Translations under genes and position numbers: made by a program | Notes under the pieces: model-generated | The model's input: the letters and a program-made list of their open reading frames with translations, nothing else | What the model was told of the DNA's origin: nothing | The model's database searches: none | Shown here: in pieces, positions 3,881 to 22,233 of the stretch | Numbering within the stretch: the stretch's first letter is position 1 | Layout of the letters: each line of letters begins with the position of its first letter | Origin: an uncultured SAR86 cluster bacterium | GTDB lineage: Bacteria; Pseudomonadota; Gammaproteobacteria; Magnimaribacterales; D2472 | Direction: 5' to 3' | DNA: 64,000 nucleotides | NCBI GenBank assembly: GCA_902583575.1 | Contig: CACHWY010000003.1 | Span: forward strand, 22,962-86,961

Positions 3881-4227
3881 TATCTATGAATGATTAAACC
3901 CACATCTTTGGCACCACGCAGTGCACCTGGTTTTGAAAGCCTCAACTTAACTGATTCAACATTGAATTCATCTTTAACAAGAGATGCTATCCCTTCAGCC
4001 AAAGACTCTTGAAGTTTAAATGAAGATTCTTCAACAAACTTTATAATAGCCTTACATATAGTTTTGTAATCAATAGTGTCCTCTATAGAATCTGTTGCTG
4101 CAGCGCTCTTGCAATCAAAAGGAAATTCAATATCTATACTCACTTCTTGTTTGGTCTTTCGTTCCCAATCAAATATTCCTATGATTGTTTTCACTCTTAA
4201 ATCTTTTATATAAATAATATCTTTCAT
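3880..4227 (-). CDS. folB: Dihydroneopterin aldolase
   Basis: IYIKDLRVKTIIGIFDWERKTKQEVSIDIEF matches the FolB N-terminal signature. Size is 115 aa. Confidence 0.85.
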   Translation of the reverse strand: MKDIIYIKDLRVKTIIGIFDWERKTKQEVSIDIEFPFDCKSAAATDSIEDTIDYKTICKAIIKFVEESSFKLQESLAEGIASLVKDEFNVESVKLRLSKPGALRGAKDVGLIIHR

Positions 4228-5228
4228 TCTTTTAACTCATTCAATGGCCATCTTGCTCTAACTTTTGATTTAATAATTTGTTCTTTAGGCGCTATCATCA
4301 TCGAGCCCACAAAAGCAATCATAGCTGCATTATCTCCACAATATTTTAAATCAGGATAATAAACTTTTATATCAAGTGAATCTTCAAGTTTCTTAAATTC
4401 ATTTCTTATAAATTTATTTGCAGCAACTCCTCCAGCTATAATCACATCTTTTCTATTTGTTTCTTCAACAGCTTTTTTTATTTTAACAACTAAAAGATCT
4501 GTAACTGCTTTTTGAAATGATGCTGCAATATCTGCTTTTTTAGATTGATCTAAGTCTTTAATCTTTTGTACAGTATATAAAACTGCAGTTTTTAATCCAC
4601 TCAAGCTGATATCAAGATTATCGCTATGAATCATAGGCCTTGGAAAATCATAGGCATTTGGATTCCCTTCTAAAGCTAATTTTTCTATATGCGGACCTCC
4701 TGGATAAGGAAGATCAAGTAATTTTGCTACCTTATCAAAAGCCTCTCCAACTGCATCATCTTGTGACTGCCCAATGATTTCATAGTTACCCTTCTCTTTT
4801 ACATCTACTATCATGCTGTGGCCACCAGAAACTAGTAAGCATATAAATGGCATTTTAATTTCTGGAAATTCCATCATAGGAGACATTAAATGTCCCTCGA
4901 GATGATTGATTGATATTAAAGGTATATCCAATGCAGTAGATAAGCCTTGTGCAAAACTTTCTCCTATTAATAAAGCTCCTAACAATCCAGGACCCGAGGT
5001 ATAAGCTACTTGATCTATGCCATCAATAGAATTATTTCCTAGGGCATCTTTTAAAACATTAACAATCTTTAAGCAATGATCTCTGGAGGCTAATTCTGGT
5101 ACTACTCCACCATATTCAGCATGCACTTCCATTTGACTATGTATAGATTCGCCTATGATTCCATCTTTAGAATCATAAATTGCTATCGCTGTCTCATCGC
5201 ACGAAGTTTCTATACCTAAAGTTTTCAT
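4224..5228 (-). CDS. tsaD: tRNA N6-adenosine threonylcarbamoyltransferase
   Basis: GIETSCDETA start, the HLEGH metal motif and SGGHS. It is 334 aa and divergent from rpsU, as in E. coli and Pseudomonas. Confidence 0.93.
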   Translation of the reverse strand: MKTLGIETSCDETAIAIYDSKDGIIGESIHSQMEVHAEYGGVVPELASRDHCLKIVNVLKDALGNNSIDGIDQVAYTSGPGLLGALLIGESFAQGLSTALDIPLISINHLEGHLMSPMMEFPEIKMPFICLLVSGGHSMIVDVKEKGNYEIIGQSQDDAVGEAFDKVAKLLDLPYPGGPHIEKLALEGNPNAYDFPRPMIHSDNLDISLSGLKTAVLYTVQKIKDLDQSKKADIAASFQKAVTDLLVVKIKKAVEETNRKDVIIAGGVAANKFIRNEFKKLEDSLDIKVYYPDLKYCGDNAAMIAFVGSMMIAPKEQIIKSKVRARWPLNELKE

Positions 5229-18880: not shown

Positions 18881-20020
18881 ATGAATAAACTAAAATTTAT
18901 TGAAGATATTTCTTCATTAAAAGAATCTGAATTTGATGACTTAAATAGTAAAGATGATTCCCCTTTTACTAAATATGGATTTTTAAATTCTTTGGAAGAG
19001 TCTAGATGTGTTTCAACAGTTAATGGATGGAAGCCAAATCATCTAGCAATATTTAATAAAAAAAAGTTGGGGGGCTTTATACCCTTGTATTTAAAAAATA
19101 ATAGTCACGGTGAGTTTGTATTTGATCACCAATGGTCTTATGCATTAAATAGGGCTGGAAGAAATTATTATCCAAAATTATTAACAGCTATTCCATTTAC
19201 TCCCTGTAAGACTAAAAAAATATTCAAAAGCGAAAAATTGGATTATGAAATCTTTATAGAAGAAATTAAAGATCTGATGATTAAAGACAATATAGAAACA
19301 TGGCATATGCTTTTTCCAGATGATGAAGTCCATAAGATACTCACTGATAGTAATTTTATAAAGAGAAGTGGTTATAAATTTATTTGGAATAATAAAAAAT
19401 ATAATTGTTTTGAAGATTATTTAGAAATTTTTACTTCTAGGCAAAGAAAGAATATTAAAAATGAAAGAGAGAAAGTTAAAAAAGCAGGAATTACTTTTAA
19501 GGTGAAAGACAAAAGTAATTTGACTGATGGGCATTGGGAAGATTTTTATAACTTTTATAAGAATACATATCTTGAAAGATTACAGGAACCATATCTAAAT
19601 TTAGATTTTTTTAAAGGGGTTCATGCAAATCGAATGCAACTGAACCCAATTATTATCTTTGCAGAGAAAAATAATAAGAAAATTGCAGCTGCACTATTTT
19701 ATAACGGTAAATCAGTACTTTATGGAAGACATTGGGGTGCTTCTGAATATGTAGACAATCTACATTTTGAATGCTGTTATTATCAAGGGATTGATTATTG
19801 TATAAAAAATAAAATAGCCCATTTTGATCCAGGTGTTCAAGGAGAACATAAGATGAGAAGAGGTTTTGAGGCAACAGAAACTTCCTCTTATCATTACATA
19901 ATGAAAGAAGATTTTAGAAATGCCATAAAAGATTTTTGTGCTAGAGAAGGAAAAGAAATTAAAAATTATTTAAAGGCCTGTGAAAGATATACACCCTTCA
20001 AGAAAGAATATAAAATTTAA
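18881..20020 (+). CDS. FemAB-like/GNAT-fold N-acyltransferase family protein (DUF482-type)
   Basis: 379 aa. The N-terminal SPFTKYGFLNSLEES, HGEFVFDHQW and YGRHWG segments match my memory of the PF04339-type family. Function unknown. Confidence 0.6.
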   Translation: MNKLKFIEDISSLKESEFDDLNSKDDSPFTKYGFLNSLEESRCVSTVNGWKPNHLAIFNKKKLGGFIPLYLKNNSHGEFVFDHQWSYALNRAGRNYYPKLLTAIPFTPCKTKKIFKSEKLDYEIFIEEIKDLMIKDNIETWHMLFPDDEVHKILTDSNFIKRSGYKFIWNNKKYNCFEDYLEIFTSRQRKNIKNEREKVKKAGITFKVKDKSNLTDGHWEDFYNFYKNTYLERLQEPYLNLDFFKGVHANRMQLNPIIIFAEKNNKKIAAALFYNGKSVLYGRHWGASEYVDNLHFECCYYQGIDYCIKNKIAHFDPGVQGEHKMRRGFEATETSSYHYIMKEDFRNAIKDFCAREGKEIKNYLKACERYTPFKKEYKI

Positions 20021-20202
20021 TCATGCTTAAAACTTTACCTAAAACATCTCACCAACTAAAACTTTGTGAGGGTAACTTTTTGCGTCCAAAAAAAATGTCT
20101 TCAAGAAAGAATATAAAATTTAATCATGCTTAAAACTTTACCTAAAACATCTCACCAACTTACAGTTTGTGAGGGTAACTTTTTGCGACTAAAAAGAATG
20201 CT
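19997..20202 (+). repeat. Tandem direct duplication, 2 x 103 bp, spanning the GNAT 3' end and the yqiB-like 5' end
   Basis: Hand alignment of 19997-20099 against 20100-20202. The first 61 nt are identical and the last 42 nt carry 8 mismatches (95/103 overall). Confidence 0.9.
20023..20133 (+). pseudogene. Duplicated 5' fragment of the yqiB-like gene (36-codon ORF)
   Basis: Encodes MLKTLPKTSHQLKLCEGNFLRPKKMSSRKNIKFNHA. The first 12 residues are identical to the start of the 140-aa protein at 20126. The ORF then runs through copy 2 of the repeat in a different frame. Confidence 0.4.
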
Positions 20203-20548
20203 TCAAAAGTTCTCAAAAGAAACATACTTTTTCCAAACTATTAATCCTGATGAATCATATAATGAAATATCATTCAGAATTATTCATAGGACAAAACATA
20301 CTCTAATTGTTGAAGCTAAACAAAATAAAAATAATGATCAAATAAATAGCTTTATTTTAAGAATACAGATTTGTCTTGACGCCAATTTAGCAGAAGTTAT
20401 TTCTTATCAAGGTGAGAAAGCAATCCCTGCTTTTATTAAAATTTCTAAGAGTCAGTCCAAGGATGAAAAACTTCAACAAAATAGATTCTTAACAGAGTGG
20501 CTAGAAAGTATTTTTATATCGGGTATTAATTCAGAAATAAAATTTTAA
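20126..20548 (+). CDS. yqiB: DUF1249 protein (YqiB-like)
   Basis: 140 aa, the same length I recall for E. coli YqiB. It lies directly upstream of yqiA and overlaps it by 1 nt, consistent with the E. coli nudF-yqiB-cpdA-yqiA neighbourhood. Confidence 0.6.
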   Translation: MLKTLPKTSHQLTVCEGNFLRLKRMLQKFSKETYFFQTINPDESYNEISFRIIHRTKHTLIVEAKQNKNNDQINSFILRIQICLDANLAEVISYQGEKAIPAFIKISKSQSKDEKLQQNRFLTEWLESIFISGINSEIKF

Positions 20549-21123
20549 TGGTCAAGACGATATTATACTTTCATGGTTTTGCCTCATCATCAGATTCTGA
20601 AAAAGCAGATATTTTAAAAAACTATATTTCATCTTTCGCTAAAAAAACAAAGCTGGTCGTTCCTGATCTAAATGATAATTTCCAAAAAGCTGTTAAAGAA
20701 ATAAAAGAACTAATTAAATCTAATGATGAACCGATTGCTTTTATGGGTAGTTCTTTAGGAGGATATTATGCAGCATATTTTGCAAGTATGTCTAACTCAA
20801 AAGCTATTTTAATTAATCCAGCTATACCTCCATTAAAAGATTTTGATATTCATCTTGGAGAGAATGAAAACTACTCGACTGGAAATAAATTTAAACTCAC
20901 AAAAGAAGATATGAAGTTTATTAGGTCGATTGCTTTTAAGAAATATGATAATTCTTCCAATACACTTATTTTGCTTGAGTCTAAAGATGAGATATTAAAT
21001 TACATTGAAACATCATCATATTTCAAAAGTTCTTTTATAGATATTGAGTTTGGCGGGAATCATTCATATACCTCTCTTAGCAAAAAACTCGAAAAAATTA
21101 GAAATTTCATAGATATTCAATAA
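20548..21123 (+). CDS. yqiA: Esterase YqiA (alpha/beta hydrolase)
   Basis: ILYFHGFASS, the MGSSLGGYYA nucleophile elbow, LINPA, GENENYSTG and GGNHSYT parallel E. coli YqiA as remembered. Confidence 0.85.
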   Translation: MVKTILYFHGFASSSDSEKADILKNYISSFAKKTKLVVPDLNDNFQKAVKEIKELIKSNDEPIAFMGSSLGGYYAAYFASMSNSKAILINPAIPPLKDFDIHLGENENYSTGNKFKLTKEDMKFIRSIAFKKYDNSSNTLILLESKDEILNYIETSSYFKSSFIDIEFGGNHSYTSLSKKLEKIRNFIDIQ

Positions 21124-21264: not shown

Positions 21265-22233
21265 ATGAAAACTTATGAATATATTTGGCTTGATGGATAT
21301 CAGCCCGAGCCATCAATGAGAAGCAAAGTTAAGGCAACAAAGGATGAAACACCGCCTGATTGGTCTTTTGATGGATCTTCAACAGAACAAGCAGAAGGAG
21401 GCAGTTCAGACTGTTTGCTTTTACCAGTTCAAACTTATGAAAATCCAAATGGACATGACCTAGTTATGACACAAGTTCAAAATGCAGATCATACCACTCA
21501 TCCATCTAATTTTAGAGCTGCTGCTGCAGAAGTCGTTTCTGATGAATGGTGGTTTGGATTTGAGCAAGAATACTTTTTTACAGATCCAGAAACGGGTGAA
21601 CCTTTGGGATGGGAAAATGGTGAGCCAGGACCTCAAGGCCCATATTATTGTGCAGTTGGTGCTGGAAATGTTTCTGGAAGAGAAATTTCTGATGCACACC
21701 TTTTAGCTTGCTTAGATTTGGGAATAGAGTTAACTGGAACTAATGCTGAGGTTGCTATCGGCCAATGGGAATATCAATGTTTTGGTAAAGGAATTAAAGC
21801 AGCAGATGATCTTTGGGTAAGCCGATATTTACTATATAAAATTGCTGAAGAATTTGGAGTTGGTGTAAACATACATCCGAAACCAAAAACTGGAGATTGG
21901 AATGGCTCAGGAATGCATACTAATTTTTCTAATGAGGCTATGCGAACAGCTGGAAGTGAAGAGTTGTTTACTTCAATGTGTGACAAATTAGGTAAAGTTC
22001 ATGAGGAAGGTATAGCTGCATATGGTTCTGATAATGATATGAGATTAACAGGCCTTCATGAAACGCAAAGCATTGACACATTCTCATATGGAGTTAGTGA
22101 TAGAGGTGCCAGTATACGTATACCAGTATATACAGTCGAACATGATTGGAATGGTTATCTAGAAGATAGAAGACCTGCATCAAATGCAGATCCATATAAA
22201 ATCCTATCTCACATAGTAGGTACTTTAAAGTAG
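21265..22233 (+). CDS. glnII: Glutamine synthetase type II (eukaryote-like GSII)
   Basis: YIWLDGY, FDGSSTEQAEGGSSDC, WFGFEQEYFF, PQGPYYCAVG, NAEVAIGQWEYQ, DWNGSGMHTNFS, RLTGLHETQSIDTFSYGVSDRGASIRIP and GYLEDRRPASNADPY all parallel rhizobial GlnII and eukaryotic GS as remembered. An AAGGAG RBS lies 7 nt upstream. Confidence 0.93.
   Translation: MKTYEYIWLDGYQPEPSMRSKVKATKDETPPDWSFDGSSTEQAEGGSSDCLLLPVQTYENPNGHDLVMTQVQNADHTTHPSNFRAAAAEVVSDEWWFGFEQEYFFTDPETGEPLGWENGEPGPQGPYYCAVGAGNVSGREISDAHLLACLDLGIELTGTNAEVAIGQWEYQCFGKGIKAADDLWVSRYLLYKIAEEFGVGVNIHPKPKTGDWNGSGMHTNFSNEAMRTAGSEELFTSMCDKLGKVHEEGIAAYGSDNDMRLTGLHETQSIDTFSYGVSDRGASIRIPVYTVEHDWNGYLEDRRPASNADPYKILSHIVGTLK

Follow-up and report, generated by a model that had tools for sequence, protein, structure and literature searches.

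A 103-bp tandem duplication across a FemAB_like/yqiB gene junction, probably a lineage-specific presence/absence polymorphism within one SAR86 species

In a 64,000-nucleotide stretch of DNA from an uncultured SAR86 cluster bacterium (contig CACHWY010000003.1 of assembly GCA_902583575.1, positions 22,962 to 86,961 of the forward strand; hereafter the window), the junction between a FemAB_like gene and a yqiB-like DUF1249 gene is straddled by two head-to-tail copies of a 103-bp unit. It is probable that this repeat is a lineage-specific tandem duplication which segregates as a presence/absence polymorphism within a single SAR86 species. Judging from the sequences of the strains compared, the duplication is probably tolerated because translational coupling into the yqiB-yqiA pair is preserved, and it is probably near-neutral rather than a purpose-built regulator.

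Tandem Repeats Finder (TRF) reported the interval 19996-20206 with a period of 103, 2.1 copies, 93% matches and a score of 371, the next-best score in the window being 59. When the two copies are compared directly, 95 of the 103 positions are identical, including all of unit positions 1-61, and the eight mismatches fall at unit positions 62, 64, 66, 89, 91, 97, 102 and 103. Under uniform placement, the probability that all eight lie in the last 42 of 103 positions is approximately 5e-4 to 8e-4, a value calculated post hoc. Both comparisons agree with an earlier note on this DNA, which had described 103-nt head-to-tail copies with 61 identical nt followed by 42 nt carrying eight mismatches. A 41-nt core has two exact matches in the window and none in 100 shuffles, and no other direct repeat of at least 40 nt was found within the 64 kb. 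A dispersed repeat family or mobile element was rejected, since there are just two adjacent copies and nothing alike elsewhere in the 64 kb.

The last 24 nt of FemAB_like, including its TAA, form the start of repeat copy 1, and a 2-nt spacer separates this TAA from the copy-1 ATG. From that ATG runs a short chimeric upstream open reading frame (ORF), whose first 12 residues are those of YqiB; beyond these it diverges and continues into copy 2 out of frame with yqiB. The ORF ends at a TAA (20131-20133) that gives an 8-nt overlap with the yqiB start, in the sequence ATGCTTAA. The NCBIfam DUF1249 model (PRK11039) matches residues 9-135 of the 140 residues of YqiB, and because the match begins at residue 9, the copy-2 ATG is taken as the true yqiB start; YqiB homologues start with ML(K/R)TLPKTSHQL. 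The ORF and Pfam/NCBIfam searches therefore bear out the gene calls made from the letters alone, the 36-codon ORF with its 12 shared residues, and copy 2 as the in-frame start of the 140-aa protein. The junction had also been called unusual for the window, which is roughly right: by crude ORF-based gene calls, the FemAB_like-yqiB gap is 105 nt, among the 10 largest of 53, and the median same-strand gap is 4 nt.

The evidence on the duplication and its polymorphism consists of assembled contigs. The population sample was obtained from look-ups with DUF1249, GlnA, NtrB and cluster representatives and from a single metagenome pattern scan (6 loci); exact-protein look-ups of the window FemAB_like, YqiA and UbiA matched no record. 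The exact 140-aa YqiB of the window is the commonest variant of its cluster, being present on 265 contigs and listed in 315 collection blocks. The 105-nt gap and the same junction were found in 10/10 of the places with the most flanking DNA, which comprise Tara and other ENA metagenomes, the NCBI assembly GCA_902562025.1 (L002) and two ~1-Mb pilon-polished contigs (L004, L005); the last two are probably long-read assemblies, to judge by their size, names and residual frameshifts. The GlnA, NtrB and cluster-representative look-ups added more duplicated contigs (L101, L106, L115-L119). With the window included, the duplication is present on 18 contigs, and the other 17 come from independent marine assemblies, with MEGAHIT and SPAdes-style assemblies among them. 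The junction ATG-T-CTTCAAG occurs in no single-copy allele, and thus it cannot be made by joining two strain alleles. The possibility raised in the earlier note, a strain-variant chimera introduced by assembly, fails on the recurrence of the same junction in 17 further independent contigs.

Comparison of the junction in related genomes, which had been proposed as a check, placed the duplication in no sister SAR86 lineage examined. The nearest genome records all belong to SAR86 cluster bacteria. The order UbiA-FemAB_like-DUF1249-YqiA-GlnA is kept in SAR86 relatives (L011-L029), whose FemAB_like proteins are 49-62% identical. A single-copy junction, in which the FemAB_like stop is followed after 0-3 nt by the yqiB ATG, is present in these relatives and in L091-L093 and L095, as well as in the two nearest FemAB clusters (73% and 71% identical; L108-L112) and in the sister lineage with a 91% identical YqiB (P0122; L113, L114). 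Since all relatives examined are single-copy, the duplication is a derived state restricted to a single species-level population, within which FemAB_like is at least 96% identical.

The arrangement of these genes varies more widely within SAR86. In the more distant L031-L040, approximately 650-1050 nt lie between FemAB_like and DUF1249/YqiA (~4135-5200 in locus coordinates), and an extra gene is probably located there. In the sister species L023-L026 and L028, a gap of ~130-150 nt separates DUF1249 from YqiA (~4467-4600), compared with a 1-nt overlap in the window species.

Within the species, nine contigs carry a single copy (L094, L096, L098, L099, L100, L102, L103, L104 and L107). Five of the nine are MEGAHIT k141 contigs, assembled with k above the unit length; from assembler behaviour we infer that these five are genuine, because the k-mers required to collapse the repeat into one copy would not exist in a two-copy genome. 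Over 900 nt downstream, duplicated and single-copy contigs are intermixed, and L004 (duplicated) and L098 (single-copy) are 0.0% apart. Over 1000 nt upstream, the mean distance is 0.022 within the duplicated class, 0.022 within the single-copy class and 0.022 between the classes. This intermixing in both flanks rejects separate clades of duplicated and single-copy strains. In addition, the single copy of L099 consists of a copy-1 allele, CTAAAACTT (Lys-Leu), fused to the distal part of copy 2, and the FemAB_like tail of L098 carries GAATTT, the allele of the copy-2 leader. These two alleles match what deletion between the copies would leave, and hence suggest descent from a duplicated allele. 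Copy-1-type residues are also found in the rare YqiB variant P0252. Copy number was only ever one or two, and the yqiB and FemAB_like frames are intact in both states; a phase-variable contingency repeat was rejected on this ground. The polymorphism and the multiple copy-1 haplotypes are not visible from the window alone and were thus beyond the reach of the earlier note.

The two copies were compared in 12 complete haplotypes with 103-nt spacing. In copy 1, no site segregates at positions 1-26 (0/26) or 27-61 (0/35), the nucleotide diversity (pi) being 0.000 for both, and 11/42 sites segregate at positions 62-103 (pi 0.10). In copy 2, the corresponding values are 3/26 for the leader at positions 1-26 (pi 0.053), 2/35 for positions 27-61 (pi 0.016) and 1/42 for positions 62-103 (pi 0.004); the four-fold diversity of the flanking genes is 0.015-0.053. 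Within one genome, copy 1 differs from copy 2 at as few as 2 positions (in L001 and L007, where the differences are confined to the junction) and at as many as 14 (L005 type). The eight differences in the window represent an intermediate allele, and its 61 + 42 pattern is one of at least 8 copy-1 haplotypes. By direct codon reading, the distal changes in copy 1 comprise nine nonsynonymous and two synonymous ones, among them L22P, at a residue invariant in homologues; the copy-1 yqiB fragment is thus under relaxed constraint.

Exchange between the copies left further traces. Four-gamete violations in the copy-1 haplotypes involve unit positions 62/91, 64/91, 66/91 and 91/97, and alleles of copy-1 type are also present in the functional genes of L099 and P0252. 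The rare synonymous change T53C (unit position 53) is present in both copies of L118 and only in copy 2 of its relative L002, which is direct evidence of conversion between the copies, and on these sequences the copies evolve in concert. A real duplication with patchy gene conversion, one of the options first considered, is strengthened by the 17 additional contigs, T53C in L118, the near-identity of the copies in L001 and L007, and the mosaics. A block of ~100 nt (~19956-20057, comprising ~41 nt before the repeat and unit positions 1-61) shows no variation among the 12 duplicated haplotypes with 103-nt spacing; the sequence just upstream of it varies, and single-copy haplotypes vary within it. 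This uniformity could be due to conversion, to a local sweep in the recent past or to some constraint not yet recognised.

Based on these results, a probable course of events may be outlined. Each unit position would be under coding constraint in only one of the copies: positions 1-24 in copy 1, where they encode the FemAB_like tail, and positions 27-103 in copy 2, where yqiB starts. The redundant yqiB part of copy 1 would therefore decay, and conversion between the copies or recombination with other strains would interrupt this decay, which may explain why a perfect 61-nt block precedes a diverged 42-nt block. Near the left flank, copy 2 or single-copy DNA from other strains would overwrite the sequence time and again, and the distal block may by now be too diverged for this to happen. 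From time to time, a deletion between the copies would restore single-copy alleles, some of them chimeric.

The duplication most likely arose once, through slipped misalignment or unequal exchange at the CTTCAA microhomology, with an extra T at the join. CTTCAA at 19996, 20099 and 20201 accords with slippage, yet the extra T gives a unit of 103 nt and not a clean 102 nt. The extra base is present in all 13 haplotypes with 103-nt spacing, and a single origin is suggested because it is common to them all. In the oldest copy-1 alleles, 6-9 of 40 sites (15-22%) are unlike copy 2; since copy 1 alone can change freely, this is the divergence of a single lineage. At four-fold sites, the window and the single-copy 91% lineage have diverged by ~0.18, a value that sums the changes in both. 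Small as these counts are, they make the duplication seem old compared with the diversity present today.

The tight FemAB_like-yqiB junction in every relative suggests termination-reinitiation coupling, and coupling is reportedly almost lost at gaps of ~20 nt (PMC10666635). Along FemAB_like, the upstream ORF, yqiB and yqiA, the successive stop/start distances in the window are a 2-nt gap, an 8-nt overlap and a 1-nt overlap, and the yqiB start has no Shine-Dalgarno core. As far as the geometry indicates, the ancestral junction (stop, 2 nt, ATG) may have been replaced by a two-step relay through the short ORF. Such a relay would let coupling into yqiB-yqiA survive, because the short ORF starts 2 nt past the FemAB_like stop and ends a few nt from the yqiB ATG.

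The upstream ORF is open in 15/15 complete duplicated haplotypes. In 13 of them its stop lies 8 nt inside yqiB, and in two independent variants with 104-nt spacing (L101, L119) it is a 33-codon ORF whose stop is the duplicated FemAB-type TAA, located 2 nt ahead of the ATG. In L117, which is a fragment from the end of a contig and has a heavily decayed copy 1, codon 13 is an in-frame TAA. That the ORF is intact is to be expected by chance: only 5.1% of the substitutions possible in it would give a stop, and the probability of no stop is 0.26-0.48 for 14-26 substitutions, so that the test is without power. In addition, owing to the AT-rich sequence, all three reading frames have a stop within ~16 nt of the yqiB ATG, and thus the relay geometry is largely built in. 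The suggestion that the duplicated initiation region acts as an upstream ORF for yqiB-yqiA is allowed by the geometry; the chance-level openness, the stop in L117 and the strains without the duplication do not favor it. RNA explanations were rejected: no Rfam match was found near the repeat, the fold of the repeat region is no better than shuffles (z +0.35), the region has 0 terminator-like sites, and promoter-like matches (12) are below the shuffle mean (15.3). Programmed frameshifting that would extend the YqiB N terminus was likewise rejected, the yqiB frame having a TAA 12 nt upstream of the ATG.

Several observations weigh against a near-neutral presence/absence polymorphism. The single-copy contigs are all short (2.8-5.4 kb) and the duplication is present in every long or high-quality assembly, and some single-copy calls could be collapses, especially in SPAdes-type scaffolds (k=55, with a shared block of 61 nt). 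At copy-1 positions 27-61, 0/35 sites segregate versus 11/42 just downstream (Fisher p 0.0007, 12 strains). Conversion accounts for this invariance, and selection may do so as well; the contrast is softened by L118, L119 and L101, in which positions 27-61 do vary. Furthermore, 15-22% divergence between the copies against 1.5-5% four-fold diversity in the flanks implies long persistence. In E. coli assays, tandem repeats of ~100 bp are readily lost, and a few per cent divergence stabilises them. Given this instability, long persistence is hard to reconcile with strict neutrality, and it hints at selection or at survivorship of the diverged, stabler alleles.

One alternative is that selection keeps the duplication as an expression device, the upstream ORF being a relay or attenuator that sets yqiB-yqiA output relative to FemAB_like; the one- and two-copy states would then be a long-lived balanced polymorphism or a reversible switch. 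The repeat has persisted until the spare fragment diverged by 15-22% although reversion evidently occurs, the ORF ends within 8 nt of the yqiB ATG in all 15 haplotypes, including the two +1 indel variants, and 12 haplotypes show no variation in the first 35 nt of the ORF. The tight junction in every relative examined suggests that coupling matters. On the other hand, that the ORF stays open agrees with chance (P 0.3-0.5), the AT-rich frames all stop near the ATG, L117 has its stop at codon 13, and the invariance of positions 27-61 is broken in L118, L119 and L101. There is also no RNA structure signal, terminator-like site or Rfam match in the region, and nine contigs are without the duplication, their flanks undifferentiated. 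On balance, maintenance as an expression device is unlikely. The more specific proposal of an old selected polymorphism, in which a duplication-born relay ORF tunes yqiB-yqiA coupling and divergence of the spare half was favoured for stabilising the repeat, is about equally unlikely.

An alternative that concerns only the origin is uptake of DNA from a diverged strain, joined on the left by FemAB_like homology and on the right by microhomology, so that copy 1 would have been born diverged. In L101, copy 1 and the adjoining FemAB_like tail resemble the 91% lineage (L113), and the 10 differences between its copy 1 and copy 2 include 6 synonymous ones, as if copy 1 had evolved as real coding sequence; the non-templated base at the junction would also fit. 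However, the common copy-1 alleles (window, L004, L005) are unlike any sampled functional yqiB start and carry disabling changes, and L101 is one short contig beginning 47 nt upstream of the repeat, for which later recombination into copy 1 suffices. We therefore regard uptake as decidedly improbable. In L101 (1-150), the copy-1 side is near the 91% lineage (L113 1400-1700), and the sequence from copy 2 onward is window-like, with 1.1% difference; this contig is either recombinant or chimeric, with its breakpoint at the repeat junction.

It is very improbable that the 36-residue product is a functional small protein, for instance an N-terminal YqiB fragment competing with or modulating YqiB: the most conserved N-terminal motif of the family (LPKTSHQL..CEGNFLRL) is kept in some strains, but the substitutions are neutral-like (nine nonsynonymous, two synonymous) and strike conserved residues, the C-terminal tail is not the same in the 103-nt and 104-nt variants, and many strains are without the peptide. 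The weakest alternative, a false duplication in which an assembler put two strain alleles of one locus end to end, is effectively refuted and rejected: one perfect and one diverged segment could resemble a linearised bubble, and the Tara scaffold L010 has a 100-N gap within the repeat, but the same junction recurs across 17 contigs from various samples and assemblers, the two ~1-Mb polished contigs and the NCBI SAR86 assembly among them, and the copy-1 distal alleles carry disabling changes (L22P), so that they are not alternative functional alleles and, apart from the recombinant L099, were not seen as single-copy genes.

Gaps of 100 N are present in several Tara/OMD-style scaffolds (L010 2043-2142, L001 3727-3826, L003 1262-1361 and L009 4472-4571). 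The one in L010 coincides with the variable half of copy 1, as would be expected if several copy-1 alleles coexisted in that sample.

Table 1. Features of the FemAB_like/yqiB junction, in positions of the window
Feature	Position	Strand	Remarks
FemAB_like gene, predicted N-acyltransferase	18881..20020	+	Pfam PF04339, E 7.5e-126
CTTCAA hexamer, left boundary	19996..20001	+	Direct reading; recurs at 20099-20104 (junction) and 20201-20206 (after copy 2)
Repeat copy 1	19997..20099	+	FemAB_like 3' end, 2-nt spacer, and first 77 nt of yqiB, redundant and decaying
36-codon chimeric upstream ORF	20023..20133	+	25 yqiB-start codons and 11 out-of-frame codons; its ATG is 2 nt past the FemAB_like TAA
Extra T at the junction (ATG-T-CTTCAA)	20098	+	A clean CTTCAA join would yield a 102-nt unit
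Repeat copy 2	20100..20202	+	Now non-coding FemAB_like tail (positions 1-26, free to vary) and functional yqiB start
yqiB-like DUF1249 gene, functional copy	20126..20548	+	Pfam PF06853, E 4e-12; NCBIfam PRK11039
yqiA-like esterase gene (UPF0227)	20548..21123	+	Start shares 1 nt with the yqiB stop (TAATG)

Some further observations concern the repeat and its surroundings. In the centroid fold, each copy contains a small CTCAC...GTGAG hairpin (20048-20073 and 20151-20176), with positions 62, 64 and 66 in the loop. The window is ~93% coding, and a 4-nt Shine-Dalgarno core is located at -20 to -4 in only 15/70 crude gene calls, features that fit a streamlined genome using coupling or initiation without a Shine-Dalgarno site. 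Downstream of yqiA, a GlnA-like protein of 322 aa (21265-22233) is short, with a Gln-synt_N match and a partial Gln-synt_C match. Its identity across SAR86 species (L011-L029) is 83-97%, and that of the neighbouring FemAB_like, YqiB and YqiA is just 37-64%. Its gene is preceded by AAGGAG, among the few strong Shine-Dalgarno sites of the window.

With the redundant 103 nt recognised as genuine, an apparent assembly problem is removed. The locus provides a natural example of a short tandem duplication in a wild, highly recombining, streamlined bacterial population, whose life course would run from a single origin through decay of the unconstrained half and conversion between the copies to removal by deletion. 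Since both alleles are common and their flanks are otherwise alike, they constitute a natural experiment on whether coupling survives the insertion of a relay ORF. The same locus bears on how long repeats of ~100 bp persist outside the laboratory.

In general, this is a known kind of variation, and no new molecular system or element is involved. Leader-peptide or upstream-ORF attenuators of the trpL and ermCL type likewise have a short ORF directly upstream of the regulated gene and overlapping its start. The present ORF is unlike them in that neither an alternative hairpin nor a terminator is indicated and no sensor codons are evident; moreover, the species is not fixed for it, and its peptide sequence drifts. 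The abutting and overlapping stop-start pairs, ATGCTTAA and TAATG, are similar to those of termination-reinitiation coupling (Huber et al., PMC6728339, PMC10666635), and the starts in the present chain are without a Shine-Dalgarno core; in contrast to those systems, coupling is here deduced from geometry, and the middle ORF would be a by-product of duplication and no gene.

According to passages of a long-read metagenomic survey, marine SAR86 commonly carry small structural variants (1-31 per Mb), among which duplications are much rarer than insertions and deletions (PMC12379486). As far as those passages go, the present case resembles the surveyed variants in its presence/absence within one SAR86 species and in the poor performance of short-read assemblies, seen here in the N-gap of L010 and the mixed one- and two-copy contigs; the searched passages do not describe this locus (PMC12379486).

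The closest likeness is to short tandem duplications formed and lost by slippage or unequal exchange, with which the repeat shares two adjacent ~100-bp copies, a boundary microhomology, here with an extra T at the join, a return to the single-copy state through crossovers at varying points, and diverged copies that seem more persistent. Such duplications have classically been modelled in E. coli by Lovett and colleagues, reportedly with assays of ~100-bp tetA duplications. Compared with such laboratory constructs, the SAR86 duplication segregates among uncultured cells in the wild, leaves both genes intact although it spans their junction, and appears to be of an age at which one half-copy has already decayed by 15-22%.

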